A stretch of DNA of 64,000 bases from Deltaproteobacteria bacterium. Lineage in GTDB: Bacteria > Myxococcota_A > UBA9160 > SZUA-336. Below are positions 5,089 to 26,404 of this stretch, one piece after another; the first letter of the stretch is position 1, and every line of letters starts with the position of its first letter. Made by a program: the position numbers and the translations under genes. Location of the stretch: positions 3,632-67,631 of the forward strand of contig JANNLG010000091.1 of assembly GCA_031396695.1 (NCBI GenBank), in the 5' to 3' direction. The notes below the pieces were generated by a model that made no database searches, was not told the DNA's origin, and saw only the letters and a list, made by a program, of their open reading frames with translations.

Positions 5089-5877
5089 TCACAACAGGCC
5101 GTGACCCTTGATCTCGAGCGCCTTCTGCAGGAAGTCGAGCTCCGCCTCTCGGTAAGGAAGCGGCGCCGTGGCCTGGAGCAGCCGATCGCGCTCGAGCTCC
5201 TCGACGACCTTCGCGTCGCGCGGAAACGCGCTGCCGTAGCGGTTCATGTGGAACAGGTCGCCGAACGGACGGCGCGGCCGCTGCCCGCCCGCGCGCGGAT
5301 CCTCGAGCGGGTAGCCGACCGTCTGCAGCAGCAGCACGCGGCAGGTCTCGGGCATGCCGAGCGAGGCGCGGATCTTGTCGCCGTTCGGTGTACCCAGGCA
5401 ACAGGTGCCGAGCCCCTGCTCGTACGCCATCAGCGTGGCCTGCGCGATGCCCTGGCCGCAGTCGACCTCCGTGAGGCCGGGCTCCTTCAGCTTGTCGCGC
5501 AAGCTCGCGAACACGGGGATGAGCTGGGTCTCGAGCGCCTGCTCCTTGCCCGCGCCGAAGCCGAGCGCGCCGGCCTTGAGCAGCTCGCGCAAGCGGTTCG
5601 CCTGGTCGTCGATCGCGTCGGTGTCCAGGTACCAGACGATCACGACCGGCGCGCGCCGGATCTGGAAGCCCGCGATCGGAGCGACGATCGCGTCGACCAC
5701 GTCCTTCGGCGCGGTGTCGCGAAACACGACCACCGCGCGCAGCGCGCTCACGTTGCCCCAGTGCGAGGCGAGCCGCGCCGCTTCGAGCATGCGCTGGATC
5801 TTCTCCGGCTCGACCGGCTGATACGGCCGCATGAAACGGATCGAGCGCCGATTGCCGATGACCTCGCGAAGCTCCAT
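5089..5877 (-). CDS. Nitroreductase-family protein (paralog of 18543..19325)
   Basis: 262 aa. N-terminal NRRSIRFM motif typical of FMN nitroreductases. Shares a roughly 60-aa C-terminal extension (GGQRPRxPF...RDAKVV.ELE...APLP) with the second copy. Confidence 0.85.
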   Translation of the reverse strand: MELREVIGNRRSIRFMRPYQPVEPEKIQRMLEAARLASHWGNVSALRAVVVFRDTAPKDVVDAIVAPIAGFQIRRAPVVIVWYLDTDAIDDQANRLRELLKAGALGFGAGKEQALETQLIPVFASLRDKLKEPGLTEVDCGQGIAQATLMAYEQGLGTCCLGTPNGDKIRASLGMPETCRVLLLQTVGYPLEDPRAGGQRPRRPFGDLFHMNRYGSAFPRDAKVVEELERDRLLQATAPLPYREAELDFLQKALEIKGHGLL

Positions 5878-5913
5878 GACATTTCCTCCTTGCTCTCGTC
5901 TCGAGCGCTCGTC

Positions 5914-7119
5914 CTAGAGGCGGGTCGCGCCGACCAGCCCCAGTACCTCGTTGCAGCCGTCCTCGATCATCGATGCGCGCGCGTCGCGCACCAGCTTCTC
6001 GATCGGGTATTCGCGCGTCAGGCCGTTGCCGCCGAAGATCTGCAGCGCCTCGCTCGAGACCTCGAAGGCGGTCTGCGTGACGAAGGTCTTCGAGGCGATC
6101 GAGTAGTGCAGCAGCGGCGGGTTCGTGGCGTTGTAGAGCGCCACGCGCCGCGCCAGCGCGCGCGCGGCTTCGACGCGCGCGAACATCTTGAACAGCCGCG
6201 AGCGCACGCTCTGGTGCTGAAAAATCGGCACGCCGCCCTGCACGCGCTCCTTCGCATAGGAGACCGCGAGCTCGAGCGCCGCCTGCGCAACGCCCACGAA
6301 GATCGCGCCCATCGACGCATTGGCCATCGTGAGCACCATCTCCACGACGGCGCCGTAGGCCTCCGAGCCGACGATCATGTACTCCTCGGGAATCCGTACG
6401 TCGTCGAAGAAGATCTCGCCCTGATTCAGCGCGCGCTGGCCGATCTTGTCGAGCGGCTTGCCCCGCGACACACCCGGCAGATCGAGCGGTACGAGACATA
6501 CGCCGCCACCGTGGAAGCCGTGGCTCGGGTCGATGGTGCAGAACAGCGTCGCAACAGTGGCGATCGTGCCGTTCGAGACCCAAGCGGCCTTCTGGCCGCG
6601 GATCACCCACTCCTTCCCGTCCTTGCGCGCGACACAGTTCGGTTTCAGGTTGGGATCGCGGAAGTGCGGCTCACTGATCGCCAGCGAATCGCTTCCGTGG
6701 TCCGGCTCCGTGACGGCCCAGCAGCCGATCTCGTGCGCGGACTCGTCGCAGAAACGCTCGACCAGCGCGGGCCGCCCGGACATGCGCGCGAAGATCCGGT
6801 GGAAGCTCGCGACCCCGAGACTGATCGCCAGGCCCGAGTCGCCGCGGCCCATCTCCTCGCTCACCAGGCAGCGCACACGTGCCGCGTCGCCCGGAGCGAG
6901 GTCGCTGCCGCTCGATTCGAGCTGATCGAGTCCGAGCTCGCGCGACTTCTCGAACACGCGCCACAGCGTCGACTCGGGCGCGATCACCTGTGCCGGATCG
7001 GACAAGCGATCGAGCGCGATCCCGGCCGGCCGCAGCACCTCGTCGGCGAATTTTCGCGCGGTGTCGCGGATCGCCTTCTGCTCGTCGCTGAGTCCGACCT
7101 CGATGTCCGTGATCGCCAT
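5914..7119 (-). CDS. Acyl-CoA dehydrogenase
   Basis: ACAD fold motifs (CWAVTEPDHGSD, QIFGGNG..EYPIEK..RDA). Start moved to the internal ATG at 7119 (MAITDIEV...), which has a GGGAGG RBS 6 nt upstream. 401 aa. Confidence 0.9.
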   Translation of the reverse strand: MAITDIEVGLSDEQKAIRDTARKFADEVLRPAGIALDRLSDPAQVIAPESTLWRVFEKSRELGLDQLESSGSDLAPGDAARVRCLVSEEMGRGDSGLAISLGVASFHRIFARMSGRPALVERFCDESAHEIGCWAVTEPDHGSDSLAISEPHFRDPNLKPNCVARKDGKEWVIRGQKAAWVSNGTIATVATLFCTIDPSHGFHGGGVCLVPLDLPGVSRGKPLDKIGQRALNQGEIFFDDVRIPEEYMIVGSEAYGAVVEMVLTMANASMGAIFVGVAQAALELAVSYAKERVQGGVPIFQHQSVRSRLFKMFARVEAARALARRVALYNATNPPLLHYSIASKTFVTQTAFEVSSEALQIFGGNGLTREYPIEKLVRDARASMIEDGCNEVLGLVGATRL

Positions 7120-7177
7120 GACCGGCCTCCCAGTTCGGATCGATGACCGCAACGTACGGACCCACGCGATGCGCCGG

Positions 7178-7193
7178 TATGACCGGCGTCATA
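7178..7193. promoter_or_regulatory. Perfect palindrome TATGAC-CGGC-GTCATA, candidate Crp/Fnr-family operator (copy 1 of 5)
   Basis: Read directly. Centre is 66.5 bp upstream of the ACAD ATG (7119). A TACGTT (TAnnnT) hexamer lies 21 nt downstream of the site on the minus strand, the geometry of a class II (-41.5) activator site. The site overlaps the stop codon of the Crp/Fnr gene. Confidence 0.7.
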
Positions 7194-7878
7194 TGGACCG
7201 CGAATCGCTCGCGGACTCTCCGTTCGCGACCTGCTCGAGCGCTACGCGATCGAGCAGGCGGATCCAGCCCACTCCGCCCTCGATCCAGCCCGCGCGCTCG
7301 AAGCCGCGCAGCACGCGGATGGCCGTCTCGACGGTCGTGCCGGCCGCTTCACCCAGGATCCGGCGCTTCGTCACGAGCCGCTGTCCCTCCGGTGCTTCGA
7401 GCAGCACTCGCGCCATGCGCGCGGTGACGGTGTCACTCGCGAACGAGCACAGCCGGTCGTGCGCATGCTGCAGACGCTCCGCCACGATCGAGAGCAGACC
7501 TCGGGCGATGCCGGGATCCTCCGCCAGGAACGTCTGCACCACGCGACGCGGTACCCGCCACGCCTCGCCCGGCACGACGCCCTGCGCGGACTCCGCGTGA
7601 CTCGCCCCGGACGTCAGCGCCGCGAGTCCGAACAAGTCACCGATCTGGAGGCGCTCGAGCTCGATCGCCCGTCCCGAAGCGTGGCTCTTCAGCGTGCGCA
7701 GCTCGCCGTTGCCGACGGCGAACATGTACTCCGCCGCCGCCGATTCGAAGTACAGGTACTCGCCCTCGCGGAACGGAATCGAGCGCACGTGAGGTCTGAG
7801 ACGGGGCATCCGCGCCGGTCCGAGCAGCCGGAACAGCGCGGTTTCCTCGAGCGGTCGCGGCTTCGCAGGGGCCTGCAT
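7189..7878 (-). CDS. Crp/Fnr-family transcriptional regulator (no FNR-type Cys cluster)
   Basis: 229 aa. Has a cNMP-binding-like beta-roll plus a C-terminal HTH (GTTVETAIRVLRGFERAGWI) resembling the FNR recognition helix TVETISR. Contains only one Cys. Confidence 0.9.
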   Translation of the reverse strand: MQAPAKPRPLEETALFRLLGPARMPRLRPHVRSIPFREGEYLYFESAAAEYMFAVGNGELRTLKSHASGRAIELERLQIGDLFGLAALTSGASHAESAQGVVPGEAWRVPRRVVQTFLAEDPGIARGLLSIVAERLQHAHDRLCSFASDTVTARMARVLLEAPEGQRLVTKRRILGEAAGTTVETAIRVLRGFERAGWIEGGVGWIRLLDRVALEQVANGESASDSRSI

Positions 7879-7948
7879 CTCAGACTGTCCCCGAGCTGCA
7901 CTGAGGCAGAGCGCCCTGTGCGGGGCAATTCGGCACGGCGACGGGATG

Positions 7949-7964
7949 TATGACCTTCGTCATA
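7949..7964. promoter_or_regulatory. Perfect palindrome TATGAC-CTTC-GTCATA (copy 2 of 5)
   Basis: Lies in the divergent gap between the Crp/Fnr gene (ATG 7878) and the hemerythrin-like gene (ATG 8010). Suggests autoregulation. Confidence 0.7.
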
Positions 7965-8009
7965 GACGCTCCGCCCGCTGATTTTGCATGTTCGGTGCCG
8001 GAGGTAGCG

Positions 8010-8420
8010 ATGTCAGCGCACGCGACGTCGAATCCCATGATCCGCTGGTGGCAGGAGCACAGTGAGCTCGACGGCCTGGTCGAGGTCGTGGTCGAGGCGC
8101 TCGGCGGGGGCGCGATCGACTCCGCGGGCGAGTCGCTCGAGGATCTCGCAAGAGCGCTAGAGGCGCACTTCGAGCTCGAGGAGACAGCCTACTTCCCGCT
8201 GGTCGAGCGCCTCTCGCCCGACCAGCGCGCAGCGGTCGATGCGGCGCGGGTCGGTCACAGAAACATCCGCGAGCGACTCGAGGCTCTACTCACGCTCGTC
8301 GCGACCGGAGACTTGCGCGCCGCACGGGCGGCGTTCGACGTCCTGCTCGAGCGCTTCCGCACCCACGAAGCCGAAGAGGGCAAGTTGATCGCGCGGCTCG
8401 AGGCACTCGCCACCAGCTAG
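8010..8420 (+). CDS. Hemerythrin-like (HHE cation-binding) domain protein
   Basis: 136 aa from the internal ATG at 8010 (GGAGG at 8000-8004). Repeated H/E metal-ligand spacing (EHSELD, HFELEE, GHRNIRE, THEAEE) in a four-helix pattern. Confidence 0.7.
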   Translation: MSAHATSNPMIRWWQEHSELDGLVEVVVEALGGGAIDSAGESLEDLARALEAHFELEETAYFPLVERLSPDQRAAVDAARVGHRNIRERLEALLTLVATGDLRAARAAFDVLLERFRTHEAEEGKLIARLEALATS

Positions 8421-9754
8421 GGCGCGGGTCGGACGAAGTTGTTCATCCAATAGATGAACAGGCCCGTCAGCGCGACGTAGAGCCAGATGGGATAGCTGAT
8501 CCGCACGAGCCGCCGGTGCTCGGCGAAGCGCTCGCCAAGCGCGAGCTGCAACGTGCGCGCGACCAGCGGCACGACGGCGACGGCGAGCACGGTGTGAGTG
8601 GTCAGCACGGCGAGGAAGAAGGTTCGCAGCCAGTCGTCACCCGGAAAGCGGCGATGCCCGGCGAGACCGGTCTGCAGCACGTACAGCACCACGAAGAGCG
8701 CTCCGAGCGACACCGCCGAGAGCATCAGGCGTCGGTGCACCTCGCGCTGGCCGCGCCGGATCGCCACCAGCGCGGCAATCAAGAGCGCCGTGATCGCCGC
8801 GTTCAGCGCGCCGTTCAGGTGCGGCAGTAGCTCGCGTGGGCTCATCTCGACTCCTCGGGCTCCGAGCTCTAGGAGCATCGCGCCAAACAGACTCGAGAGG
8901 TAGAGCAGTGAGACGACGAACACGCGCCGATCGCCTGCGGCGCTGCGAGTGCGCACGGCCGCTGCGATCGAGCCCACGAACGCGATTCCGCCCGCGAGGG
9001 CGATGCTCGCGTAGCCGGCGCCGAGTACGCCGCCGGCGACCGGAAGCAGAGTCACGGGAATCAGCGCCAGCGCGAAGGCGAGCATGAAGCGACGAGTGAC
9101 TTGATCTCCGGCCACGGAGGGAAGCATGCGGAACGACGCCGCCTCGTACTCCTCGCGCCGGTACAGCGCGATCGCGAACACGTGCGGCGGTTGCCAGACC
9201 AGCACGATCGCGGCGAGCGCGATCCCCCACGGGCTGACGCGGCCGTCGACGGCGGCATCGGCGATCAACGGTGCAGTGCAGCCGGCGAACGCGCCCACCA
9301 GCGTGTTCCAGGCGCTGCGCGGCTTCAGCCAGATCGTGTAGACGAGCAGATAGTGCGCGAGCGTCGCCGCGCCGATCGCCGCGGGCAGCCAGCCACCGAC
9401 GGCGAAGAGCGCCAGCAGTCCGGCGACCGACGTCGCCATCCCGAAGGCCAGCGCGCGTCGAACCGGCAGCCGGCCGCTCGGCAGCGGGCGTGCGCGCGTT
9501 CGCTCCATGCGGGCGTCCGCGTCGCGCTCCCAGCACGCGTTGAGCGCGCTCGATCCCGCGCCGACGAGCGCGACTCCGAGCAGCGCGCCGAGCACCGTCG
9601 TCAGGTCGGGAAGTGCCGGCTGACCGAGCACGAACGCCGGCAGTGCGGTCAGCAGCACGCCGAGCAGCACGCCCGGACGCGTCAGGTCGAGATAGTCGCG
9701 CGCGCCCGATGTGCGCGGTGCGAGAGTCGCGACCTGCTGAGCGCTCGACGTCAT
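8417..9754 (-). CDS. ctaB: Protoheme IX farnesyltransferase (heme O synthase) fused to a DUF420 (CtaM-like) membrane domain
   Basis: 445 aa. The N-terminal ~290 aa is a UbiA-type prenyltransferase with CtaB/CyoE-like loops (NACWERDADARMERTRARPLP). The C-terminal ~150 aa (LPHLNGALNA...HRRLM...THTVLA...HRRLVRISYPIWLYVALTG) matches the DUF420 pattern. Confidence 0.85.
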   Translation of the reverse strand: MTSSAQQVATLAPRTSGARDYLDLTRPGVLLGVLLTALPAFVLGQPALPDLTTVLGALLGVALVGAGSSALNACWERDADARMERTRARPLPSGRLPVRRALAFGMATSVAGLLALFAVGGWLPAAIGAATLAHYLLVYTIWLKPRSAWNTLVGAFAGCTAPLIADAAVDGRVSPWGIALAAIVLVWQPPHVFAIALYRREEYEAASFRMLPSVAGDQVTRRFMLAFALALIPVTLLPVAGGVLGAGYASIALAGGIAFVGSIAAAVRTRSAAGDRRVFVVSLLYLSSLFGAMLLELGARGVEMSPRELLPHLNGALNAAITALLIAALVAIRRGQREVHRRLMLSAVSLGALFVVLYVLQTGLAGHRRFPGDDWLRTFFLAVLTTHTVLAVAVVPLVARTLQLALGERFAEHRRLVRISYPIWLYVALTGLFIYWMNNFVRPAP

Positions 9755-9764
9755 CCGGTCTCTC

Positions 9765-11852
9765 CTAGTGCAGGGTGAAGCCCGACGCGCGGTCGAACGC
9801 GATCACCCGCCGGGCTCGCTCGTCGAACGCGATGGACTGCTCGCTCGTGTGGGCCCACTCGTCGTCGTGGGTATCACCGATCTCCACGCGCACGAGGTGC
9901 TCTCCCGCAGGGACCGAGAGCGGCGCGACGGCGACGCTGGCGCCGTCGTTCCAGATGCCCTCGGGCGCGAAGCTCTCGTCGACCACTCGCGCACCGTCCA
10001 CGCTGACGCGCAGGCGAACCGGGGCGCGGCCCCGCTCGCACACCTCCGCCTGTCGCATGTGTCTGGGCAGACGTTCGAGCTCTTCCTCGCTGCGCGTGCG
10101 ACACACGTCGCTCTGTCGACCGGGGTGCTTGAACGTGACCACGAGCTCGGCGCCCGGCGCAGCAGGCGCGGTATAGCCCCAATCGCTGACAACGCCGATG
10201 ATCGCGCTGACGAGCAGCGCCAGAGCGACGGACCCCACGCCCGCCAGCGCGCGCGGTGGCTCCACAGTGGCTGGCCGTGGACGGTCTGCGAGCATTCGCG
10301 CGGCCGCGCGCACAAGCTCGGACTTGCGGGTCCGGTCGAGCCAGACGACCTCGATCCGCTCACGCACCTCGTGCTGCACACGCAGCGCCGGCCCACGCGT
10401 CCCGTCGAGCCGCTGGCCGAGAAACTCGGGCCCCTCGCGAAAGTGACACGATCCGGGCGGGCAGCTCACGATCAGCACCTGCTTCGCGCCGCGCCGCAGC
10501 GCCCGCTCGATCGACATCGCGTGGACCCAGCCCGCACACGGACCCGCCTGAACCCGCCAGCCGGGCAGCTCCGCACACAGCCCCGTCTTCGGGTCGATCT
10601 CGAGCGCACCTCCCGCCGACTGCGCGCAGACGAACGCGACGCCTGGCTGCTCGCCGTCCTGTCGTGCATGCTCGAGCCACGACGCGACGCGCTTGCGCTG
10701 TTCCAGCAGCGGGAACGCGGGCAGATCCGTGCCGATCGAATTGCACGAAGCCACGCAGATCCCGCACGCGACGCACTTCGCCGGGTCGACACGCGCCTCG
10801 AGCGCGTAGCTCTCGCGGCGGACCGGCTCCTCGCGTGTGACCATCGAGATCGCCTCGTACGGGCAGTCCTGGTAGCACTGCTCGCAAGCGTTGCAGCGCG
10901 CGGGGTCGACGGCCGCGCTCCGCGGCGCGCGCTTGCGCAGCGACCACGGCACCGCGCCGACCAGAGCGCCGCCGACGAGACACACGGTCCAGACCGCTCC
11001 GCCCGACAGCCGCTGGCCGAGCGCGAGCGGAAACAGGTACCACCAATCCATGCTGAACGACTCCGCGCGCGCGGTCATCTGCGCGCGCTCGGCGCTCGCG
11101 GCGGGATACGCGACCGAGAGCAGCGCGAGCGATCCCAGCACCCAGATCGTCATCGGAGCGCGCGTCAGGAAGCGCGCCCGCGCCGTGCGAGTCAGGTGCA
11201 GCCAGAGCAAGAACGCGAGCGCGAGAGGAACGAGCATGTGGAAGAAGAACACCACGAAGAACAACAGCGAGTTGATGCCCTCGTCGAACAGGAACGAGCG
11301 GCCCATCGGATCCGCGAAGATCGGCAGCGCGTCGAGCGCCTTCGCCGTCTCGATCGCCACGTATTTCCCGCGCACGTCCCAGACCAGCCAGTAACCGGTC
11401 CAGCCGAGCAGCCAGAGCACGCCAAGCGACAGCACGCCGGTCACCCACGCGACCCAGCGCGCGCCGCTGAAGCGTCTCTCGAAGAACAGCCGCAGCGCGT
11501 GCACCAGTCCGAAGAAGATGCACGCGTCGGAGCTGTAGCGGTGCAGCGAGCGCAAGAATCCCGCGCTCCACGGAGCGCTCGACATCGCGGCGACCGAGTC
11601 GTAGGCGAGGTACACGCTCGGGCGGTACCAGAACAGAAGCAGCACGCCCGTGACCGTGGCGACGAAGAGAGCGGTCAGCGCGACCGCCCCGGTCTGCAAG
11701 AACGGATTCAGCGCGTCGGGAAGCGCGCGCCCGAGCACGCGATCGAAGCCGAGGAACGAACGCTCGAGCAGACGCAGCGCGGCCTCCCCGCGGACCGATG
11801 CCTCGCCACCGTGCGCGGCCTCACCGGCCAGCCCGGCGCCTTCAGCCGCCAT
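9765..11852 (-). CDS. Fusion protein: di-heme cytochrome b (bc1/b6 N-terminal type) + 2x[4Fe-4S] ferredoxin + MvhD/FlpD-like domain + TM + C-terminal beta-rich domain
   Basis: 695 aa. Two His pairs on predicted helices (SLHRYSSDACIFFGLVHALR and FFFHMLVPLALAFLLWLHL). CNACEQCYQDCP and CVACGICVASCN cluster motifs. MvhD-like VAFVCAQS...GPCAGWV...VLIVSCPPGSCHFREG. Confidence 0.8.
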   Translation of the reverse strand: MAAEGAGLAGEAAHGGEASVRGEAALRLLERSFLGFDRVLGRALPDALNPFLQTGAVALTALFVATVTGVLLLFWYRPSVYLAYDSVAAMSSAPWSAGFLRSLHRYSSDACIFFGLVHALRLFFERRFSGARWVAWVTGVLSLGVLWLLGWTGYWLVWDVRGKYVAIETAKALDALPIFADPMGRSFLFDEGINSLLFFVVFFFHMLVPLALAFLLWLHLTRTARARFLTRAPMTIWVLGSLALLSVAYPAASAERAQMTARAESFSMDWWYLFPLALGQRLSGGAVWTVCLVGGALVGAVPWSLRKRAPRSAAVDPARCNACEQCYQDCPYEAISMVTREEPVRRESYALEARVDPAKCVACGICVASCNSIGTDLPAFPLLEQRKRVASWLEHARQDGEQPGVAFVCAQSAGGALEIDPKTGLCAELPGWRVQAGPCAGWVHAMSIERALRRGAKQVLIVSCPPGSCHFREGPEFLGQRLDGTRGPALRVQHEVRERIEVVWLDRTRKSELVRAAARMLADRPRPATVEPPRALAGVGSVALALLVSAIIGVVSDWGYTAPAAPGAELVVTFKHPGRQSDVCRTRSEEELERLPRHMRQAEVCERGRAPVRLRVSVDGARVVDESFAPEGIWNDGASVAVAPLSVPAGEHLVRVEIGDTHDDEWAHTSEQSIAFDERARRVIAFDRASGFTLH

Positions 11853-12777
11853 CGGGCTTCTCCCGCAGGAGAAGCTCCAGCGCCGAGCTCAGCCAGCGCT
11901 GCTGCCGCTCACCCAGCGTGAGTCGATAGGCGATGCGCCCGTCCCGGTCGACGAGGAGAAAGAGATTCGCGTGATCGATCACGCCGGTCTCGGGATCGCG
12001 GGTGCGCGCGATGCCCATGTCGTCGAGCACGCGCTCGACCTCGGTCGGCTCGCCGGTGACGAGCGCATAGAGCGGCGCCTCGATCTGGTGACTGCGCGCG
12101 AGCGCCGCGAGCACGTCTGGCGTGTCGTGCGCCGGATCCATGCTGACGGCGATCACGCGCAGATCGCCGCGCAGCTCCGCGGGCACCGCCGCGATCGCCG
12201 CCTTGGTCTGACCGAAAATCAGCGGACAGCTCAGCGGGCACGACGAGTACACGGCAGTCAGCAGCACGACCTTGCCCCGCAGTGCTTCGAGATCCAACGT
12301 GACTCCGTCCTGATTCACGAGCCGCAGAACGGGCGAGTGGAGCTGCGTGCGCAGCGCCTCGGCCGGGAACGTCAGCTGATCTCCCTCGGGCTCGCGACCG
12401 AGCGCCGTGAAGGAGATGGCGGCAATCGCGACGAAGAGAGCGCTCGATAGACATGGCCACACCCACGCGCGGCGTTGTGCCGCCAGCGCGCGCAACGGCT
12501 GCCACCAGAACAGCGCGATGACCGGAGCGATCACGGCCGGCGGTCCCATCATGGCCATCACGTAGCCCGGATTCAGACGGCCCGTCGCGGGGTCGTAGCC
12601 GAAGCACCAGATCCGGAACTCGTCCGCGAACCCGCCCATGCTCGTCTCACCTCCCGGGCTGAACAGCATCACGAGCAGCAGCAGCTCCCAGAACACGAGC
12701 ACGCCGAGCGCGAATGCGGGAAAGCCGCCGCCGTCGAAGAAGCGTTCGGCGTCCGCGCGGGCGTCGAGGGTGGTCAT
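11842..12777 (-). CDS. SCO1/SenC-family copper chaperone with extended N-terminal membrane region
   Basis: 311 aa from the ATG at 12777, which forms an ATGA overlap with the subunit I stop. Thioredoxin-fold CxxxC copper motif (SSCPLSCPLIF) and a downstream conserved His (D.AH.DTP-type region). The 669-aa ORF in the track is an artefactual N-terminal extension. Confidence 0.8.
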   Translation of the reverse strand: MTTLDARADAERFFDGGGFPAFALGVLVFWELLLLVMLFSPGGETSMGGFADEFRIWCFGYDPATGRLNPGYVMAMMGPPAVIAPVIALFWWQPLRALAAQRRAWVWPCLSSALFVAIAAISFTALGREPEGDQLTFPAEALRTQLHSPVLRLVNQDGVTLDLEALRGKVVLLTAVYSSCPLSCPLIFGQTKAAIAAVPAELRGDLRVIAVSMDPAHDTPDVLAALARSHQIEAPLYALVTGEPTEVERVLDDMGIARTRDPETGVIDHANLFLLVDRDGRIAYRLTLGERQQRWLSSALELLLREKPDGG

Positions 12778-14525
12778 CGCACGTGCCACACGTCTGCGAG
12801 CCATAGCCAGTTCGCGAAGTAGTAGACCGCGAACGAAAGCAGGAACACGAGCACCAGCACGAGCGTTCCCGGCGTGCGCTCGTCCTCGCCACCCGAACCC
12901 GGCGCCGGCTGGATCGCGGCGGCCGCGCGGCGATCGACGTGCCAGGCCGTCATCGGCTGGCCCGCGTTGGAGCGACCGAAGAACACGGCCGCGACCACCA
13001 GCGCGATGAACAGGAACAGCCCCAGGAAGGCGATCACCGACCCGACCCCGAGCAGCCCCAACATGACGTGCGCGCCGGAGTCGAAGCCCGCCGAGAACTG
13101 TGCGCCGCTGAACTCGACATCCCAGTGACGGCGCGGGACGCCGTAGGACCCGGCGAACGACATGCCGATCGCCATGGTCGTGATGCCGATGCCGAACAGG
13201 TACGGCTGGATCCTGCACCAGGTCCTCGCGTAGAACTCGCGCTGGAAGATCAGCGGGACGAGGTAGTAGGTCAGCGCCATGAACGCGAGCGTCGTGCCGC
13301 CGACTACGGTGACGTGGAAGTGACCCGGGATGCGCAGCGTGTTGTGCGCCATGATGTTGATCTGCTGCGTGCCGAGCACGACCCCGGTGATCCCGCCGCC
13401 GAAACCGAAGATCACGAGCGACAGGAAGAAGCCGGAGAATCCGGGATTCGACCACGGCGCGTTGGCGAGCCAGCCGAACAGCCCGCGCCCGAAGCCCTTC
13501 CCCCGCATCGCCACCTCGATCGACGCCGGCACCGTGAAGCCGTGGATCATCGATGCCAGGACGGCGAGATACATCGCGTAGGAGGTGTTCCAGATCTTCC
13601 ACGCCGCGCCGACGCCCGGATCGACCAGGATATGGTGCGCCGAGGCGAGGTTGATGAACAGGATGTAGAGCACGAAGGCGCCGCGGCAGACCGCCTGCGA
13701 GATCGGCTTCGCACCCACGGTCAATGCGCCGAGCAGGTACCAGACCGAGACCATCGCGCATACGTTCACCTGCTGAGACATGTGACCCAGTCCCCACCAG
13801 GTCACTCGATACCAACCGGGGTCGATCGCCGGCAGCACTCCGACCGACCACAGGAACGTCGGGATCATCACCACCGCGCCGTGCAAGAGCGTCACGACCG
13901 CGATGATCGCGGCCGCGGTGGCGCCGAACACGACCAGCGGCACGGAGCCCTCGTAGGTGTGGTCGCGCTTCGCGATGTAGAGCGTGCAGAAGAAGTTGAT
14001 CACGGCCACCAGCGCTCCGACCGCGAACAGGATGATGCCCAGGTAGAACAGCGGGTGCGCGACCAGCGGCGCGTACGACGTCATCAGCACGTCCGCCTTG
14101 CCGATCAGAATGGTGGCGTTGAACATGACCGCGCCGGCGAGCATCAGCGCGAATGCGATCCAGGCCAGCGCCACCGAATAGAGTCGGCTGTTGAGCAGGA
14201 CCGTCCCCGCGAAGTAGAGGATCGCGATCTCGAAGTTCAGGATCATCACGATCAGCATGTCGAGGCCGTGCAGCGTGAGAACGCGGTAGTACCAGTCCGC
14301 GGGAAGCAGATGCACCGCCGGCCAGCGCGTGAGACCGAGCAGGATGGCTCCCACGCCGCCGATCAGCAGGAACACGACGGCTGTGACCGCGTGCAGCTTC
14401 ATGAAGCGCTGCGCCGTGAGACAGACCGGCAGCCCGGTCGTGTCGCAGGCGCGGACCACTCCGGTCGGGTGATTTCCATGTGCCTCCGTCGGGATCGTGT
14501 CGCCGGGGATCGTCGTAGTCGTCAT
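12774..14525 (-). CDS. Heme-copper oxidase superfamily subunit I (B-family-like, canonical cross-link Tyr absent)
   Basis: 583 aa with about 12+ TM segments. Helix VI WWGLGHMSQQV (CuB His, but Gln at His+4). Helix VII SAHHILV (CuB HH). Helix X PGHFHVTVVGGT (heme ligands). Helix II LTLHGLDM. Confidence 0.85.
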   Translation of the reverse strand: MTTTTIPGDTIPTEAHGNHPTGVVRACDTTGLPVCLTAQRFMKLHAVTAVVFLLIGGVGAILLGLTRWPAVHLLPADWYYRVLTLHGLDMLIVMILNFEIAILYFAGTVLLNSRLYSVALAWIAFALMLAGAVMFNATILIGKADVLMTSYAPLVAHPLFYLGIILFAVGALVAVINFFCTLYIAKRDHTYEGSVPLVVFGATAAAIIAVVTLLHGAVVMIPTFLWSVGVLPAIDPGWYRVTWWGLGHMSQQVNVCAMVSVWYLLGALTVGAKPISQAVCRGAFVLYILFINLASAHHILVDPGVGAAWKIWNTSYAMYLAVLASMIHGFTVPASIEVAMRGKGFGRGLFGWLANAPWSNPGFSGFFLSLVIFGFGGGITGVVLGTQQINIMAHNTLRIPGHFHVTVVGGTTLAFMALTYYLVPLIFQREFYARTWCRIQPYLFGIGITTMAIGMSFAGSYGVPRRHWDVEFSGAQFSAGFDSGAHVMLGLLGVGSVIAFLGLFLFIALVVAAVFFGRSNAGQPMTAWHVDRRAAAAIQPAPGSGGEDERTPGTLVLVLVFLLSFAVYYFANWLWLADVWHVR

Positions 14526-14529
14526 CGCG

Positions 14530-15057
14530 CTACTCCTCGACCAGGATGCGTCCGGCCATCAGGTGGTGGCCGATGCCGCAGAACTCGTTGCAGATGATCG
14601 TGAACTCACCCGAGCTCGTCGGAGTCAGGGTGAGCACGTGGTCGTAGCCCGGCAGGATCTGGAAGTTCATGTTCAATGGCTGCAGCGAGAAGCCGTGCTG
14701 CAGGTCGATCGACGAGATGTGTACGCGGTAGGTCTGATCCTTCTTGAGCTTCAGGACCGGAAACCACGACCACATCTGCGCCTGCAGATAGGCGTCTCCT
14801 CCGGGCGCGGGCTGCACGATCGGGATGCCGTTCAGCTCCCCGACTTGGTTCGTGGACACGAAGCGCGCCACGCGCTGGGCGAACTCCGCGGGCGTGACCC
14901 GGTACGCCTCGCCGGTGCTGTTCTGCTTGCCGTAGAAGTGCCAGTACGGCATTGCGACGAACATCACGAGGCACCAGCTCATCGCGAGGCCGACCCAGAG
15001 TCTCTCCGCTCCGTGCGGCGCCTTGAACCAGCCCGCCGGCGGTGGATGAATGCTCAT
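14530..15057 (-). CDS. Heme-copper oxidase subunit II with complete CuA site (single TM, ba3-like size)
   Basis: 175 aa with one N-terminal TM and a cupredoxin domain. CuA ligand pattern: H in DLQHGFSL, and CNEFCGIGHHLM (C-x-E-x-C-G-x2-H-x2-M). Confidence 0.85.
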   Translation of the reverse strand: MSIHPPPAGWFKAPHGAERLWVGLAMSWCLVMFVAMPYWHFYGKQNSTGEAYRVTPAEFAQRVARFVSTNQVGELNGIPIVQPAPGGDAYLQAQMWSWFPVLKLKKDQTYRVHISSIDLQHGFSLQPLNMNFQILPGYDHVLTLTPTSSGEFTIICNEFCGIGHHLMAGRILVEE

Positions 15058-15072
15058 GCGATCACTCCTTGT

Positions 15073-15228
15073 TCACGGCAACGTCGCGGGCGCCAGGTAG
15101 TACAGCTCGACCCATGCCCAAAGCGTGTACGAGACGATCGGGATCAACACCCCGAGCGCGAGCAGCAGCCACGGATTGTCCATGAGTCTCTGCAGCGGGT
15201 GGACGTAGCCCGAGTCACTTCGCGCCAT
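15073..15228 (-). CDS. Small single-TM membrane protein (oxidase accessory subunit candidate)
   Basis: 51 aa from the ATG at 15228 with a GAGGAGG RBS. One hydrophobic helix (PWLLLALGVLIPIVSYTLWAWV). Position is analogous to the small subunits of ba3/cbb3 oxidases. Confidence 0.5.
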   Translation of the reverse strand: MARSDSGYVHPLQRLMDNPWLLLALGVLIPIVSYTLWAWVELYYLAPATLP

Positions 15229-16666
15229 AGTCGAACCTCCTCGACCCGGCCAGCGCACCCGCCGCCGGAGTGACCGATTCGCGACTCAGCCAGGCGGACC
15301 CGACGACCGCGATGAACAAGATGCCTCCGGCGATCGAGGCGAAGCCGCCTAGCCCCATCAGGCCCAGACCCAACGTCTCGGCGACACCGCGAGCCGCCTG
15401 CTCCGCGCCGTAGATCTTGCGCCCCATGCCGTGCGCGCCCGCGAGCGCGAAGCCGGCCGCCAGCACCAGCATCCCGGCGCCATACACCGCGGGCTGCCAG
15501 ACGACCGCGCGGCGCATTCCACTGCTCGAGATCCCGAGACCGAACGACGGCAGCAGCAGGTAGCTCGCCGCCATGAATGCGAGCGTGATCGCCCCGACCG
15601 ACGCGTGATAGTGCGCGGGGACCATCGTGCTCTGGCCGCGAATCGCCGCGCCGAGCCCGAAGCCCACCGCGGTCAGGACTGCACTCACGAGAAACGCGGA
15701 GATGCGCGGGTCCGCGAGCGACGCGGCGGAGATCGCGCCCGCACGCCATGCACGCACGACGGCCGTCGTGCACAAGATCAGGAAGATCGTGACGACCGGG
15801 AAGATGCACCAGCGCATCAGCTCGGTGTATCCGACCTGGTAGCCCGCCGTGTGGGTGCCCGCGAGCGCGAACACAGGCGCGAACAGCCACGGCAGAAGAA
15901 GCGCGACGAATAGCCAGCGCGCCGCGAGCGCGCTCACCGGGGCCGCGCCGAGCGCGGACTCGAGCAGCCACAGCCAAAGCGAGAGCATGGCGAGCGTGCA
16001 CACGAGCTGCAGCACGTGCCCGATTCCCCAGACCAGCAGGTCGGCGTACACGTCGGGTTGGAGACCGCCTGGCGCGCGCAGCCAGGTGAATGCGAGCGTG
16101 AGCGCGGCGAGCAGCAGCGCCGCGCGCGCCGTGCGCAGGCCGCTGACCACGCCCGCCGGCATGTCGATGGCGACCAGGCGCGCCGCGCCCGCGCGCCGAT
16201 CGGGCAGAAAGCGGGAATCGACGAAGCTGGCGAGTACGCCGAATCCGAACACCAGCTGACCCGCCTGGAAGATCCAGTGATCCACTGTCGGGATGTAGTT
16301 CGAGAGCAACGGAGGCGCGCCGGGAATCCCGGCTCCGACGAGCTGCAGCGCGATCCCCGCACCCGCGACGTGAACCGAGTGCCGCGCGAGCCACCCGGCG
16401 CGTCCGCGCGCCGGCAGCAGGAAGAAGAGCGAAGCCAGGATCGAGTAGAACCAGGCGACCAACGCCAGGTTGACGTGCGCGACCAGACAGCGCTTGAAGA
16501 AGACCGGGTCGGTCACGAAGCGATCGAAGGGAGGCATGCGTCCCAGAACCACGGCAAGCGCGAACAATCCGGCGAGCACGAGCACGATCAGCGACATTCC
16601 CAGCCAGCGCCGAGAAGCGAGTCGAAGTTCCGAGGTGTCGCTGCTCGTGCTAGCCGTTGAGGACAT
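15215..16666 (-). CDS. Divergent heme-copper-oxidase subunit I-like membrane protein lacking the helix VII His-His pair
   Basis: 483 aa, polytopic. Clear local similarity to the neighbouring subunit I (LVWGIGHVLQLV vs WWGLGHMSQQV; VPAHYHASVGAITLAFMAASYLLLP vs IPGHFHVTVVGGTTLAFMALTYYLVP). No HH motif, only GTHTAG. Confidence 0.7.
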   Translation of the reverse strand: MSSTASTSSDTSELRLASRRWLGMSLIVLVLAGLFALAVVLGRMPPFDRFVTDPVFFKRCLVAHVNLALVAWFYSILASLFFLLPARGRAGWLARHSVHVAGAGIALQLVGAGIPGAPPLLSNYIPTVDHWIFQAGQLVFGFGVLASFVDSRFLPDRRAGAARLVAIDMPAGVVSGLRTARAALLLAALTLAFTWLRAPGGLQPDVYADLLVWGIGHVLQLVCTLAMLSLWLWLLESALGAAPVSALAARWLFVALLLPWLFAPVFALAGTHTAGYQVGYTELMRWCIFPVVTIFLILCTTAVVRAWRAGAISAASLADPRISAFLVSAVLTAVGFGLGAAIRGQSTMVPAHYHASVGAITLAFMAASYLLLPSFGLGISSSGMRRAVVWQPAVYGAGMLVLAAGFALAGAHGMGRKIYGAEQAARGVAETLGLGLMGLGGFASIAGGILFIAVVGSAWLSRESVTPAAGALAGSRRFDYGAK

Positions 16667-16853: not shown

Positions 16854-17084
16854 TCAGTCGATCTGCGGCATCTTCGCGCGCGACAGTCCGAGCAGCGCGC
16901 GGACCAGGAAGCCGAGCATTCGCGGCCGCAGCGTCATGCGCAGCAGCTGCAGAAACTCGCCGAGCGTCATGTGGGTGCGCGCGTCCCACACGCCCATCTT
17001 CCCGCTGATCACGATCTCGCCCTGGCCCGGCTCCATCCTGTCGAACGACAGGATGAAGCGCCCCGCTTGCGACTCGACCGTCAT
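16854..17084 (-). CDS. Hypothetical small protein (76 aa)
   Basis: High GC3 coding pattern. The ATG is 1 nt after the stop of the upstream 450-aa gene. No recognisable motif. Confidence 0.5.
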   Translation of the reverse strand: MTVESQAGRFILSFDRMEPGQGEIVISGKMGVWDARTHMTLGEFLQLLRMTLRPRMLGFLVRALLGLSRAKMPQID

Positions 17085-17085
17085 C

Positions 17086-18438
17086 TCAGGCCGCCCGCAG
17101 CGCCCGCGCGCGCCGCGCGTGCCACTTCTCCAGGTGGCGTCGGTGCCGTTCGGTGTAGGCCCCGTCCTGGTAGTGCGTGTCGTAGAAGTCGCAATCGATG
17201 TGCTGCGCCTGCACCATCACCGTCAGCAGGCAGGGATCGACGAGCGCCGGCAAGCGTCCCCACTTGCGCCAGACCGCGCGCAAGACGTCCTTCGTGCACT
17301 GCACGATCACCGGGTCCGTGCGCGGGATGGCGACCTCCATCTGGCCCGGACGCTTGTACGGAGCGTTCTCCGCGTTCGCGGGATGGAAGATCCCCGTCGG
17401 ACCCCACTTGCGCTCGATCAGATCGTCGACCGCGTCGTCGATCGAGCCGCCGTAGTAGTACGGGTGGTGCGTCTCGAAGACACCGTCTTTCCCGATCGGG
17501 TACGGGAAGCCCGCGAGCGGACCGTGATCCGCGGTCTCGAAGCGGAAGCCGAGGCCTCGACACAGAGGTGTGCCGCCGAGCGCCATCATCGCGTTGAAGC
17601 CGCCAAACGGCCAGCCTCCGAGTCCGAGCGCCGATTCCACCAGCAGCAGGTTCTGCGCCATGAAGCCGACCTCGACGTTGCACGCGCCGAAGGCGACCAG
17701 CGGCTCGAGACTCTGGTACGGCACCGGAATCGTCGCCAGCCCCTGCTTCACCCACTTCTCGCAGCCGAGCGGCGTCATGCCGTCATCGGCGTCCACCGGA
17801 TAGTTGCCCTGCTCGATGAACAGCATCAGCCCGTTGATCAGCTCCGCGGTCACGTCGCAGACCGGCATGAAGAGCGTCGTGCCGGGCTGGTTCGCGTTCC
17901 AGGTGTTGAACGACATGAACGCGGGCGAAGAGTGCGGCAGGTCGATGCGCTCGCTCGAGATCTGCACGCGCCGGTCCGCGAACACGGAGACTAGCTGATC
18001 GAGATCGTCCATGCGCGCGATCTCCTGCATGCGCTCGGGGTGCGTGCCGCGGATCTTCACGACGTAAGTGCCCTCGTCGTTCGTGTAGAACAGCTCCGTG
18101 CCGTGCGAGCCACAGGGACTCGGAAAGGTGCGGCCCGAGTACTCGAGCATGGTGTTGCAGTTGCCGTCCCAGGCCTCACCGGGCGCGAGCTCCTCCTTCC
18201 GCGTGTGCGGCATGTCCGCGAGGTTCGTGCCGGACATGCCCGTCGCGGCCATGCACAAGAGCGCCTCCTCCTCGAAGGAGAGCGGCAGCGGCTGCGCCTG
18301 CGACTTGAATGCGTTGGGTCCGTGACGGATCTCCATGCCCAGTCCGAAGCGGCGTGAGCGCCGTGTGAAGATCGACTCGAAGAGTGGCGTCGACCAAGCC
18401 TCTTCGAGCAGCTTGCGGGTCTCGGGATCCATCGCCAT
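17086..18438 (-). CDS. Large nitroreductase-superfamily-like protein (450 aa, function unknown)
   Basis: Start at the ATG at 18438 (MAMDPE...), with GAGGAGGAA 6 nt upstream. N-terminal TRRSRRFGLG and mid-protein GFMAQNLLLVESALGLGGWPFGG resemble nitroreductase FMN-fold motifs. The domain assignment is tentative. Confidence 0.7.
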   Translation of the reverse strand: MAMDPETRKLLEEAWSTPLFESIFTRRSRRFGLGMEIRHGPNAFKSQAQPLPLSFEEEALLCMAATGMSGTNLADMPHTRKEELAPGEAWDGNCNTMLEYSGRTFPSPCGSHGTELFYTNDEGTYVVKIRGTHPERMQEIARMDDLDQLVSVFADRRVQISSERIDLPHSSPAFMSFNTWNANQPGTTLFMPVCDVTAELINGLMLFIEQGNYPVDADDGMTPLGCEKWVKQGLATIPVPYQSLEPLVAFGACNVEVGFMAQNLLLVESALGLGGWPFGGFNAMMALGGTPLCRGLGFRFETADHGPLAGFPYPIGKDGVFETHHPYYYGGSIDDAVDDLIERKWGPTGIFHPANAENAPYKRPGQMEVAIPRTDPVIVQCTKDVLRAVWRKWGRLPALVDPCLLTVMVQAQHIDCDFYDTHYQDGAYTERHRRHLEKWHARRARALRAA

Positions 18439-18492
18439 GGCAGGTTCCTCCTCGCGCTGGCTGCAAAGAGAACAGGCGCGCCGAGCGGCAGC

Positions 18493-18508
18493 TATGACGG
18501 CGGTCATA
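18493..18508. promoter_or_regulatory. Perfect palindrome TATGAC-GGCG-GTCATA (copy 3 of 5)
   Basis: Lies in the divergent gap. Centre is 62.5 bp from the 450-aa gene ATG (18438) and 42.5 bp from the nitroreductase ATG (18543). Confidence 0.7.
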
Positions 18509-18542
18509 AGCCGGGGGATTGCGCCCGGCTAGTGTCGTGTTG

Positions 18543-19325
18543 ATGGAACTACGCGGTGTACTCGGTGGGCGGCGTTCGATCCGCTTCTTCGACCCGGATC
18601 GACCGGTCGAGCGTGCGAAGATCCAGAGGATGCTCGAGGCGATGCGAATCGCTTCGTGCGCGGTGAACGCGCACTGGCTGCGCGCGGTGGTGGTGAATCG
18701 CGCCGACATCCCGGCCGCGACGCTGGAGGCTCTGAAGACGCCCGTCGCCGGGCTCGTCCAAGAGCTCGCTCCGGTCCACATCTACTGCTACCTCGACGCG
18801 GGCGTGGTCACGCGCGTGAAGGGTGCGCGCCTGAAGCAGCTCGTGGACGTCGGCGCGCTGAACCCGACGCACGGTTGGAGTCACCGCTTCGTCGACGAGT
18901 TCGTCTATCCCCAGATCCTCGAGCCGATGACGAAGGGGCCAGGCTATCTCGTCTCGGCCGCCTTCGACTGCGGCGGCGCCGGTACGCAGGGTCTGCTGGT
19001 CGCCGTCGACGAGGGACTCGGCGTCTGCTGGACGGCGTTCAACCCGGCGCCCGCAAAGCAGCTGCTCGGCGTGCCCGACGACTGGGTGCCTCTCTACTGT
19101 CTGAACGTCGGCTACGCACTCGAGTCACGCGATGCCGGTGGCCAGCGACCACGCCCGCCGTTCGAAGAGCTGTACTTCGAGGGTCGCTTCGGCCGGCCCT
19201 TCGCGCGCGACGCGAAGGTGGTCGGCGAGCTCGAGCAGACCGGCATGATCCAGCCGCCCGCGCCGCTGCCGGGCCGCCGCGAGGAAATTCGCGGGCTCGC
19301 GCACCGGCTCGGGCTGCCGGAGTAA
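18543..19325 (+). CDS. Nitroreductase-family protein (paralog of 5089..5877)
   Basis: 260 aa from the ATG at 18543 (MELRGVLGGRRSIRFF...). Alignable end to end with the 262-aa copy, including the C-terminal extension. Confidence 0.85.
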   Translation: MELRGVLGGRRSIRFFDPDRPVERAKIQRMLEAMRIASCAVNAHWLRAVVVNRADIPAATLEALKTPVAGLVQELAPVHIYCYLDAGVVTRVKGARLKQLVDVGALNPTHGWSHRFVDEFVYPQILEPMTKGPGYLVSAAFDCGGAGTQGLLVAVDEGLGVCWTAFNPAPAKQLLGVPDDWVPLYCLNVGYALESRDAGGQRPRPPFEELYFEGRFGRPFARDAKVVGELEQTGMIQPPAPLPGRREEIRGLAHRLGLPE

Positions 19326-25000: not shown

Positions 25001-25146
25001 CCTTGGTCGTGGTTCCGGTCGTCTATTGCCTGCTCGATTCGCTGCGCATCGGCGCCGCATTGCGCCTCGGCACCGCTCTGCGCGAGCGGCTTCGCGGATG
25101 GTCAGGGCTCGTCGAAGAACGAATCGATCTCGGGCGGCGCCCGTAG
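22012..25146 (+). CDS. RND efflux transporter permease (AcrB/HAE family)
   Basis: 1044 aa. Internally duplicated 12-TM architecture with two large periplasmic loops. Typical N-terminus SIRRPVFALMLSL. Confidence 0.95.
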   Translation: MKLASLSIRRPVFALMLSLGLVVLGLVSLSRLEIALDPDVEFPFIAVTTVLRGASPETVESEITDVLEEEINTTEGIRSLRSVSAESLSQVFVEFEIGEDVDVKAQQIRDKVALARPRLPLDAEDSVVAQLDPDAAPILSILLAGPYAIRELSELAENEVADRIERLPGVGSVSVVGSRRREIRIWLDPLRLSGYGLSIEEIADVLRRENAELAGGRIENAEQEWAVTTANKVGRIDDFGSLIVAERGGSLVHLLDVATIEDGLQEERSIARLNGERGVSLEVRRRSGANTVAVARAVRATVEELRATLPAGLSMSLARDNATFIEDSIGSIFEDMVLGAILTVAVVLLFLRNLRSTLIAALAIPASVIASFTFFLMAGFTLNMMSLMALSLSIGLVIDDAIVVLEAIYRRLESGESRREAADRGTEQVGLAVVSTTLAVCAVFVPIAFMSGMVGQWFYEFGLVVAIAVGVSTLVALTLTPMLASKLLRLERAPGRTVRTLERGQTALEHGYRRLLAGALRRKGLTVGAALVAIVLGLGVAALLPFDFYQQGDQGEFAVDAKLPIGTPLGVTDRVSRRIEEIVSAQPHVLDVFATVGPGLQREANRTHIVVKLVPKQERSATQLDVMDALRETLHDAVPEAEEISVGELSWIQFSGGRSATLVYTLRGPDLERLAGHAAALVARMKSDPVFVDVASSHETGRPEIRLTLARDVAADLSVPGVAVGRTIRALLAGEKVGTFEQSGERYDVRVQVLPEYRDDPGELDLIRVRSMRGDLVPLTNVARVRIGEGPVEIHREDRSRQITLYANLAHGAPLGVGSQKLEAWGRELAIVSPDELAAAGRARAMMETGTAIRFAFFLALAAIYMILASLFNSLVHPFTIMVSAPLAFIGGFLALWFAGMSLDLMSGIGLLVLLGLVMKNGILLVDCANQLREDGRSAQNAMLEAGPVRLRPVLMTTGALIFGLLPVAFSASSGSEFRAPMAMITVGGLLTSTLLTLVVVPVVYCLLDSLRIGAALRLGTALRERLRGWSGLVEERIDLGRRP

Positions 25147-25620: not shown

Positions 25621-25655
25621 GGATTTGGAGGCTATGGGCGCGGCCGTCGCACGCC

Positions 25656-25671
25656 TATGACAGCCGTCATA
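25656..25671. promoter_or_regulatory. Perfect palindrome TATGAC-AGCC-GTCATA (copy 5 of 5)
   Basis: Lies in the divergent gap. Centre is 66.5 bp from the gamma-subunit ATG (25730) and 43.5 bp from the cytochrome b ATG (25620). CAGATT lies 21 nt downstream toward the molybdoenzyme operon. Confidence 0.7.
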
Positions 25672-25729
25672 ACCACGCGTCGCGCCGCAAGGCAGATTCT
25701 CGAGCAGAGACTGACTCGGAGGCCGGACG

Positions 25730-26401: not shown

Positions 26402-26404
26402 GCG

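Follow-up and report, generated by a model that had tools for sequence, protein, structure and literature searches.

The window analyzed here, i.e., the whole stretch of 64,000 nucleotides (64 kb) from contig JANNLG010000091.1 of a Deltaproteobacteria bacterium, contains two adjacent minus-strand open reading frames (ORFs), separated by 4 nt, that encode subunit II and, downstream of it, subunit I of a heme-copper oxidase (HCO) that very probably belongs to the eNOR family of nitric oxide (NO) reductases. The subunit II gene (14530..15057) encodes a protein of 175 aa with one transmembrane helix and a cupredoxin domain (Pfam COX2, E 3.7e-5), and the subunit I gene (12774..14525) encodes a protein of 583 aa (Pfam COX1, E 1.3e-62) for which the profile search matched no NCBIfam equivalog. 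Chance ORFs are not a concern here, because both ORFs are long and have a G+C content at third codon positions of 0.90-0.91 (the window has ~69% GC), and the homologues of subunit I are counted in thousands. An exact-sequence look-up of the window protein returned no record. In the HMMER comparison with PDB sequences, the best match of subunit I was subunit I of the ba3 oxidase from Thermus thermophilus (E 5e-45), and the best match of subunit II was the ba3 subunit II (E 3.8e-12). The AlphaFold2 model of subunit I (pLDDT 72.9) matched best the HCO entry 7DEG and ba3, with template modeling (TM) scores of 0.72-0.76; the PDB entries searched with this model included no eNOR structure.

Subunit I contains the motifs LTLHGL (aa 83-88), WWGLGHMSQQVNV in helix VI (aa 243-255; 13761..13799, minus strand), SAHHILV (aa 295-301), and PGHFHV (aa 400-405). 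The residue equivalences, taken from the HMMER alignment to ba3 and from a MAFFT alignment numbered on ba3, place in the protein all six canonical histidines, i.e., H86 (H72 in ba3), H248 (H233), H297/H298 (H282/H283), H402 (H384), and H404 (H386), and R465/R466 as counterparts of ba3 R449/R450. By alignment with ba3, H86 and H404 are the ligands of the low-spin heme, H402 is the ligand of the high-spin heme, and H248, H297, and H298 are the ligands of the non-heme metal. The original prediction, made by reading this DNA without database searches, had already named these ligands and motifs and delimited both ORFs, and all of them were found where it had put them.

The helix VI motif reads GHMSQQ, and Gln252, four residues after the metal ligand H248 (His+4), occupies the position of the cross-linked Tyr237 of ba3, as both alignments show in agreement with the original prediction. 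Next to it, Q251 replaces ba3 V236 and N254 replaces ba3 W239. The WY pair that had been noticed 11-12 residues further on does exist (W262-Y263) and aligns with ba3 I247-Y248, but Y263 corresponds to the K-channel residue Y248, well below the active site, and is no substitute for Tyr237. The ba3 channel positions S309, T312, T315, and Y248, whose inspection had been proposed as a check, are occupied by S325, H328, T331, and Y263, respectively, a set of K-channel-like residues. Subunit II, described beforehand as ba3-sized and provided with one transmembrane helix and a full CuA site, proved to be so: the hydropathy scan revealed a single transmembrane segment, and the motifs DLQHGF (aa 118-123) and CNEFCGIGHHLM (aa 156-167; nt 14557-14592) supply the complete set of CuA ligands (H121, C156, C160, H164, and M167), in register with the IICNQYCGLGHQNM motif of the ba3 subunit II.

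The eNOR family is B-family-derived and has a CuA subunit, K-channel-like residues that include the equivalent of S309, and a modified heme a (heme As) in both heme sites, the low-spin heme being ligated by His and Lys in some eNORs (PMC11214002). Its subunit I is defined by a conserved Gln at the position of the cross-link Tyr (Schwartz et al., PMC8756737). By family, the residue at His+4 is Tyr in the oxygen reductases, Glu in cNOR/qNOR, Asn in sNOR, and Gln in eNOR (PMC8756737 Table A4). The eNOR purified from Rhodothermus marinus reduced NO at 0.68 per s and did not reduce O2, and 547 eNOR have been counted in GTDB genomes (Murali et al., PMC11214002). The window protein is a B-related subunit I that has the six histidines, a Gln at His+4, and the K-channel-like residues, among them the counterpart of S309; a CuA subunit II is encoded next to it, and the operon includes heme o synthase and SCO genes. 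We consider it very likely that the two genes at positions 12774-15057 specify a heme-copper NO reductase of the eNOR family (its subunits II and I). The NO reductase activity of the window enzyme would be expected by analogy with the purified R. marinus enzyme. Since Gln at His+4 is a published diagnostic of eNOR, the missing Tyr is a known family signature and does not point to a new kind of enzyme. The earlier idea of a NOR-like B-family derivative devoid of the cross-link Tyr holds and can be sharpened to eNOR, i.e., the protein is very probably a member of an already described, biochemically tested, and very widespread family and not a new B-family derivative.

The other families of this kind do not fit. 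An sNOR would have Asn at the Tyr position and no S309 equivalent, and the window protein has Gln252 and Ser325; the same Gln argues against a bNOR, as do the closest genomes, which belong to Myxococcota and other Gram-negative phyla. In gNOR, one of the CuB-ligand histidines is changed to Asp and subunit II has no CuA ligands (PMC11214002), whereas the window cluster encodes all three metal-ligand histidines and a full CuA site. The nNOR family has a cNOR-like active site with Glu and a His/Met low-spin heme (PMC11214002), and the window protein has Gln at His+4 and a His/His low-spin heme (H86/H404). A B-family O2 reductase of the ba3 type was also rejected, as the motif reads GHMSQQ and not GHPxVY and the protein falls outside the GHPxVYFW group in the tree described below. 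The proposed parallel with the norSY-senC cluster of ammonia oxidizers pointed to sNOR and hence to the wrong family; the order II-I-SCO is the usual eNOR layout (bioRxiv 10.64898/2026.01.22.701106), and it is explained by the assembly of CuA.

A scan with the back-translated motif [WY]W[GI]xGH[MGS][SAT]QQ over one genome per species yielded at least 600 stretches, 586 of them with confirmed relatives, in at least 586 species genomes. Among these, the best match was an uncultured Myxococcales metagenome-assembled genome (MAG) at 83% identity, followed by relatives in Rhodothermales and Balneolaceae (65-68%; Rhodothermales 65-67%) and in Verrucomicrobiota, Planctomycetota, Nitrospirota, Gemmatimonadota, Methylomirabilota, and Proteobacteria (54-70%). 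With tblastn against plasmids, relatives were also obtained from Defluviimonas, Thermomicrobium roseum, and Thermus thermophilus (46-52% identity). The GHxxQQ[VI]N motif is invariant in the 85 clade members examined (85/85), as are Q251, Q252, N254, S325, H328, and Y263, and T331 is Thr in 82 of them and Ser in 3. All the ligands are invariant too, with the exception of the T. thermophilus protein, encoded on plasmid pHB5018d (locus L002, cluster at 5858-11146), which reads GHFK, i.e., the H386 equivalent is Lys, the variant known in some eNORs. On the plasmid it is flanked by an Rrf2 regulator, by a DUF542 protein, and by a NirK-like multicopper protein in fusion with a cupredoxin plus a cytochrome c. 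Another invariant feature of the clade lies in the N-terminal cytoplasmic segment of subunit I (residues 23-33, VRACDTTGL; window 14430-14460, minus strand), where R25 and C27 are found in a predicted short beta hairpin that has no counterpart in ba3.

In a neighbor-joining tree, the window protein falls within a GHxxQQ clade with a bootstrap of 99/100 and outside the GHPxVYFW group; Rhodothermales MAGs and the Thermus member with the His/Lys low-spin heme ligation belong to the same clade. The closest outside relatives of this clade (41-44% identity) have a GHxxQY motif and keep the Tyr, and the typical B family with GHPxVYFW is more distant. This order agrees with the published clustering of eNOR with the O2 reductases of the "K" family (bioRxiv 10.1101/592808). 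The GHxxQY[VI]N proteins are probably that little-described "K family", which goes back to Hemp, Murali, and colleagues. Between the GHxxQQ clade and its Tyr-retaining neighbors, Q252 and Y316 are the main polar or aromatic differences, and several small or non-polar positions also differ. The nearest outside relatives with GHxxQY[VI]N (representatives P0124, P0125, P0127, and P0141, and also P0226, P0255, and P0220) bracket the change from Tyr to Gln. Among the distant representatives, Gln replaces the CuB histidine of helix VI in P0259 and P0261 (GQxxxY), and P0171, P0174, P0190, P0233, and P0250 present FHxxHY[IVL]P at this site.

Taking ba3 and the purified eNOR as models, we propose a mechanism in which a periplasmic donor would reduce the binuclear CuA of subunit II (H121, C156, C160, H164, and M167), and the electrons would then pass to the low-spin heme (H86/H404) and to the site formed by the high-spin heme (H402) and the non-heme metal (H248, H297, and H298), where two NO molecules would be coupled to give N2O and H2O. 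Protons would be taken from the cytoplasm through the K-channel-like residues T331, Y263, H328, and S325 toward Q252, and such an uptake would make the turnover electrogenic. We infer this proton uptake, and likewise the roles considered below for three other products of the operon (the cytochrome b fusion, the small ORF, and the HCO paralog). Q251, Q252, and N254 would form a polar distal pocket where ba3 has V236, Y237, and W239. Q252 sits where a Glu ligates FeB in cNOR, and it may hydrogen-bond to the metal or ligate it weakly. The sequence is compatible with either Fe or Cu as the non-heme metal, and both this metal and the heme type are putative. The enzyme is not expected to be an oxidase, because the replacement of Tyr237 by Gln252 removes the redox-active His-Tyr cofactor that is the source of the fourth electron for O2. 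The SCO and heme o synthase-DUF420 proteins encoded next to the subunits would build the CuA and heme cofactors.

Both subunit genes belong to a compact minus-strand operon of seven genes that runs from 16666 to 8417 and encodes, in this order, an HCO paralog, a small ORF, subunit II, subunit I, a SCO protein, a cytochrome b fusion, and a heme o synthase-DUF420 fusion. We have examined its conservation by tblastn of the operon proteins against 84 related loci, 43 of which have complete flanks, and the cluster turned out to be conserved across phyla. In the 43 complete loci, the cytochrome b fusion was found in 41, the SCO gene in 40, the small ORF in 33, the heme o synthase in 24, and the HCO paralog in 18 (~40%). 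In the published description of the eNOR operon of Ferrigenium straubiae, which the window operon matches in layout, subunits II and I are accompanied by heme o synthase, by sco1, and by a "scaffold protein of unknown function", and the cytochrome b/Fe-S genes near eNOR were called "rather unusual" (bioRxiv 10.64898/2026.01.22.701106). In the clusters sampled here (41/43), these genes are the rule rather than the exception.

The first gene of the operon (15215..16666) encodes a divergent paralog of HCO subunit I of 483 aa that shares 26% identity with subunit I over its full length (BLASTP E 2e-18) and has no Pfam match. Its AlphaFold2 model (pLDDT 88.4) predicts an HCO fold, with ba3 subunit I as the best Foldseek hit (TM 0.74-0.76). 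The family of this paralog comprises 724 matches, mostly annotated as "hypothetical protein", and no description of it was found in the eNOR and HCO literature examined. Site mapping revealed that the family retains the equivalents of H72, H233, H384, H386, R449, and W229, and that the His-His pair of helix VII is changed to [A/S/G/M]-P, Tyr237 to Leu, Val, or Phe, and the channel residues are lost. The paralog probably binds two hemes and lacks a binuclear center.

The small ORF that follows (15073..15228) encodes a protein of 51 aa with a single transmembrane helix, or a version of 61 aa if translation starts at the GTG at 15258. In 56 of the 84 related loci, the subunit II gene is immediately preceded by a homologous small ORF, which is annotated or called in locus L001, Thermus, T. 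roseum, and Defluviimonas. Judging by its position, it is a possible counterpart of the subunit IIa of ba3; given that it has no PDB or Pfam match, the label "subunit IIa" is positional only.

Downstream of subunit I, the gene at 11842..12780 encodes a SCO1/SenC copper chaperone of 312 aa (Pfam SCO1-SenC, E 4e-18) with ~3 extra N-terminal transmembrane helices according to the transmembrane scan, which presumably assembles CuA. The next gene (9765..11852) encodes a fusion protein of 695 aa supported by Pfam and NCBIfam matches, in which a di-heme cytochrome b (two H-x13-H motifs and six transmembrane helices) is followed by two 4Fe-4S motifs (CxxCxxCxxxC), a domain of the FlpD/MvhD type, a further transmembrane helix, and a C-terminal domain of ~140 aa without family assignment. 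According to the predicted topology, the part with the Fe-S motifs and the FlpD domain faces the cytoplasm. The ~140-aa domain is homologous (E 4e-23) to a separate ORF of 172 aa in the Defluviimonas cluster (L004 13979-14497) and may be the "scaffold protein" of the Ferrigenium operon description. The last gene (8417..9754) encodes a heme o synthase (CyoE/CtaB) fused to DUF420 (TIGR01473, 247 bits, above the cut-off; Pfam UbiA and DUF420). Among the loci tested, this fusion is confined to the closest relatives.

The paralog and the cytochrome b fusion may act as a dedicated electron-input module, which is a reasonable idea for what are candidate roles. A stronger version of it, in which the eNOR of this lineage is more than a two-subunit enzyme and forms the catalytic core of an undescribed membrane module that, with the two-heme, CuB-less paralog and the cytochrome b/4Fe-4S/MvhD fusion, whose C-terminal domain would be periplasmic, links the quinone pool or a cytoplasmic donor directly to NO reduction, appears to us rather unlikely and is put forward only tentatively.

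Some genes around the operon had been regarded as signs of an anoxic or NO-related setting. The HemN and Crp/Fnr genes are real, and so is the hemerythrin-like gene (7950..8420, plus strand; Pfam Hemerythrin, E 2e-13), which is convergent with the 3' end of the operon, but HemN and Crp/Fnr are not conserved neighbors across the 84 loci. The hemerythrin gene is a weakly recurrent neighbor, seen again only in locus L087 (ortholog, 61% identity) and at the end of the Defluviimonas cluster. The Crp/Fnr-family regulator (7189..7878, minus strand; Pfam cNMP_binding and HTH_Crp_2, with a weak FixK-like match) has a homolog beside the cluster in just 1 of the 84 loci. HemN, Crp/Fnr, a 473-aa protein, and nitroreductases were discarded as parts of the system, their counterparts being present only in the nearest syntenic relative, L087. 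In the window, the region 16856-19325 carries this 473-aa protein without family match (17086-18507, minus strand), an ORF of ~76 aa downstream of it, and a divergent nitroreductase (18519-19325, plus strand); this gene set is kept in the syntenic L087 (90% identity for the 473-aa protein) and is absent from the other eNOR loci.

About 10 kb from the operon, the region 25102-30273 encodes a molybdoenzyme of the type II DMSO reductase family in the order gamma-beta-alpha, next to a cytochrome b561 gene: an EB_dh heme b subunit (25730-26401), an Fe-S subunit (26405-27427), and a catalytic subunit that ends at 30273. It was rejected as a nitrate reductase, since it is closest to the ethylbenzene dehydrogenase (Ebd)-like subfamily and not to NarG. 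The same molybdoenzyme lies 1.6 kb from the eNOR cluster in locus L086.

Denitrification genes do stand next to the cluster in close relatives. In L085, whose subunit I is 79% identical to that of the window, nirS, napD, napA, and napGH-like genes are found directly upstream; nirS lies within 8-10 kb of the cluster in L007, L028, L060, and L020, and napA is near it in L014 and L068. For nirK, L025 and L043 gave scores that exceed the NCBIfam cut-off, and tblastn matches were obtained in four more loci of Verrucomicrobia or Balneolaceae. Regulators of the Rrf2 family border the cluster in 19 loci and in Thermus; these proteins were not accepted as NsrR, as they matched the superfamily model only and not the NsrR equivalog.

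Several observations weigh against the assignment of the window enzyme to eNOR or against its role in denitrification. We place the protein in the family by published diagnostic features and by taxa, as the tree was built without the reference eNORs of R. marinus, Magnetospirillum magnetotacticum, Accumulibacter, and Ferrigenium and so contains no characterized enzyme; a homolog search with a betaproteobacterial clade member retrieved only Steroidobacteraceae and Gammaproteobacteria MAGs, and no Accumulibacter, Ferrigenium, or Magnetospirillum. NO reductase activity has been measured for one eNOR alone, and its turnover is low (0.68 NO per s). The clade has a specific tyrosine, Y316, conserved in at least 97% of its members. 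In the 64-kb window, genes of the nir, nos, and nar types are lacking, and so is a gene for heme a synthase (CtaA), which many eNOR operons have although it is not universal. Finally, a scan for FNR/Dnr boxes (TTGAT-N4-ATCAA, with up to two mismatches) gave 8 matches where 4 were expected, none of them upstream of the operon, and thus regulation of the operon by the neighboring Crp/Fnr gene in response to anaerobiosis or NO is not supported.

Some of these facts could be accommodated if the enzyme were indeed an NO reductase whose role in this bacterium is the scavenging or detoxification of NO under micro-oxic conditions and not energy-conserving denitrification. The lack of nir, nos, and nar genes in the window is in agreement with such a role, and so are the absence of nir near the cluster of L087 and the presence of hemerythrin, Crp/Fnr, HemN, and nitroreductase genes as neighbors. 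The Rrf2 regulators belong to a family that includes the NO sensor NsrR, and detoxification has been raised for Ferrigenium as well (bioRxiv 10.64898/2026.01.22.701106). However, nirS and nap genes adjoin the cluster in relatives at 78-79% identity, the nir genes of this bacterium could sit elsewhere in its genome, the Rrf2 proteins do not reach the NsrR equivalog, and the invariant K-channel-like residues suggest an electrogenic turnover. We regard detoxification as a possible role, although clearly not the one that we favor.

The conserved Y316 raises another question, i.e., whether the protein could still be an O2 reductase in which a Tyr from another helix, either Y316 in helix VIII or Y287 in helix VII, has taken over the cross-link role, in a similar way to the helix VII Tyr of cbb3. 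Neither the Tyr-retaining neighbors nor the B family have Y316, the GHxxQY proteins, which are the nearest relatives, resemble O2 reductases, and the operon has typical oxidase assembly genes. Nevertheless, Y316 corresponds to ba3 V300, nine residues above S309, and by helical phase it would lie on the face opposite to the active site. Y287 (F272 in ba3) is common to the Tyr-retaining group and for this reason is not a replacement; moreover, 10 residues separate it from the HH pair that follows, against 6 for the tyrosine of cbb3, so that it lies one turn deeper. Once purified, the R. marinus eNOR did not reduce O2 (PMC11214002), no migrated tyrosine was found in the models of the Tyr-less NOR families (Murali et al., PMC11214002), and nirS, nirK, and nap genes adjoin the cluster in relatives, all of which makes a relocated Tyr very improbable.

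Hardly any weight can be given to the idea that the enzyme catalyzes a different reaction (such as NO dismutation, N2O reduction, or peroxide/peroxynitrite reduction) or that the complex, together with the cytochrome b fusion and the paralog, serves mainly in electron transfer. NO dismutase or N2O reductase activity has been suggested for other HCO families that lack the Tyr (PMC11214002), the distal pocket Q251/Q252/N254 is unusual, and two of the conserved accessory redox proteins are uncharacterized, but the sole tested member of the family makes N2O from NO (PMC11214002), the NO dismutase and N2O reductase candidates are related to qNOR/cNOR and not to the B family (PMC11214002), and genes for NO-producing nitrite reductases are recurrent functional neighbors.

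The assignment to eNOR has consequences for annotation, since databases label the window protein and thousands of its relatives as "cytochrome c oxidase subunit I" or "cbb3-type". These mislabeled proteins are most likely NO reductases producing N2O, a greenhouse gas, and with the GHxxQQ signature the capacity to reduce NO can be assigned to what is probably a Myxococcota lineage, as well as to many further phyla without cultured members. If eNOR draws its protons from the cytoplasm, this step of denitrification conserves energy, unlike the step catalyzed by cNOR. The accessory genes are the least described part of the system, and two of their products, the CuB-less paralog and the cytochrome b/Fe-S fusion, are specific candidates for the route by which electrons enter eNOR. 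The main interest of the locus resides in this routine mis-annotation as cytochrome c oxidase and in the conserved uncharacterized accessory genes.

When compared with known systems, the window enzyme would carry out the same reaction as cNOR and qNOR, which have Glu at the variable His+4 position of the active site where the window protein has Gln. The bNOR (qCuANOR) of Bacillus azotoformans likewise has a CuA subunit and a B-like K channel, and it is electrogenic, thus providing a precedent for an energy-conserving B-derived NOR, but its active site is sNOR-like and the family is restricted to Bacillales (PMC11214002). The sNOR of ammonia oxidizers (norSY-senC) is also B-derived, has a CuA subunit with an adjacent SenC/SCO gene, and has lost the Tyr; it differs in having a conserved Glu elsewhere in the channel and no S309 equivalent (PMC11214002).

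The ba3 oxidase of T. thermophilus is the closest solved structure by both sequence and fold, with the same set of ligands, a small CuA subunit II with one transmembrane helix, a single K-type channel (equivalents of S309, T315, and Y248), and a possible IIa-like small subunit. The two enzymes share ~25-30% identity, and the window protein differs from ba3 in having Gln for both V236 and Tyr237, Asn for W239, Val for Y244, and His for T312, as well as in the presence of Glu99 in helix II; it is expected to reduce NO and not O2. The GHxxQY[VI]N group shares with the window protein E99, Q251, N254, Y287, and H328 but keeps the cross-link Tyr. Finally, from the eNORs themselves, i.e., that of R. 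marinus and the "cytochrome a1-like" hemoprotein of M. magnetotacticum, the window enzyme does not differ in any defining feature that can be read from the sequence. It is distinguished by its origin in a probable Myxococcota MAG, by a window without CtaA, by the fusion of heme o synthase to DUF420, and by the CuB-less HCO paralog encoded upstream in its cluster.

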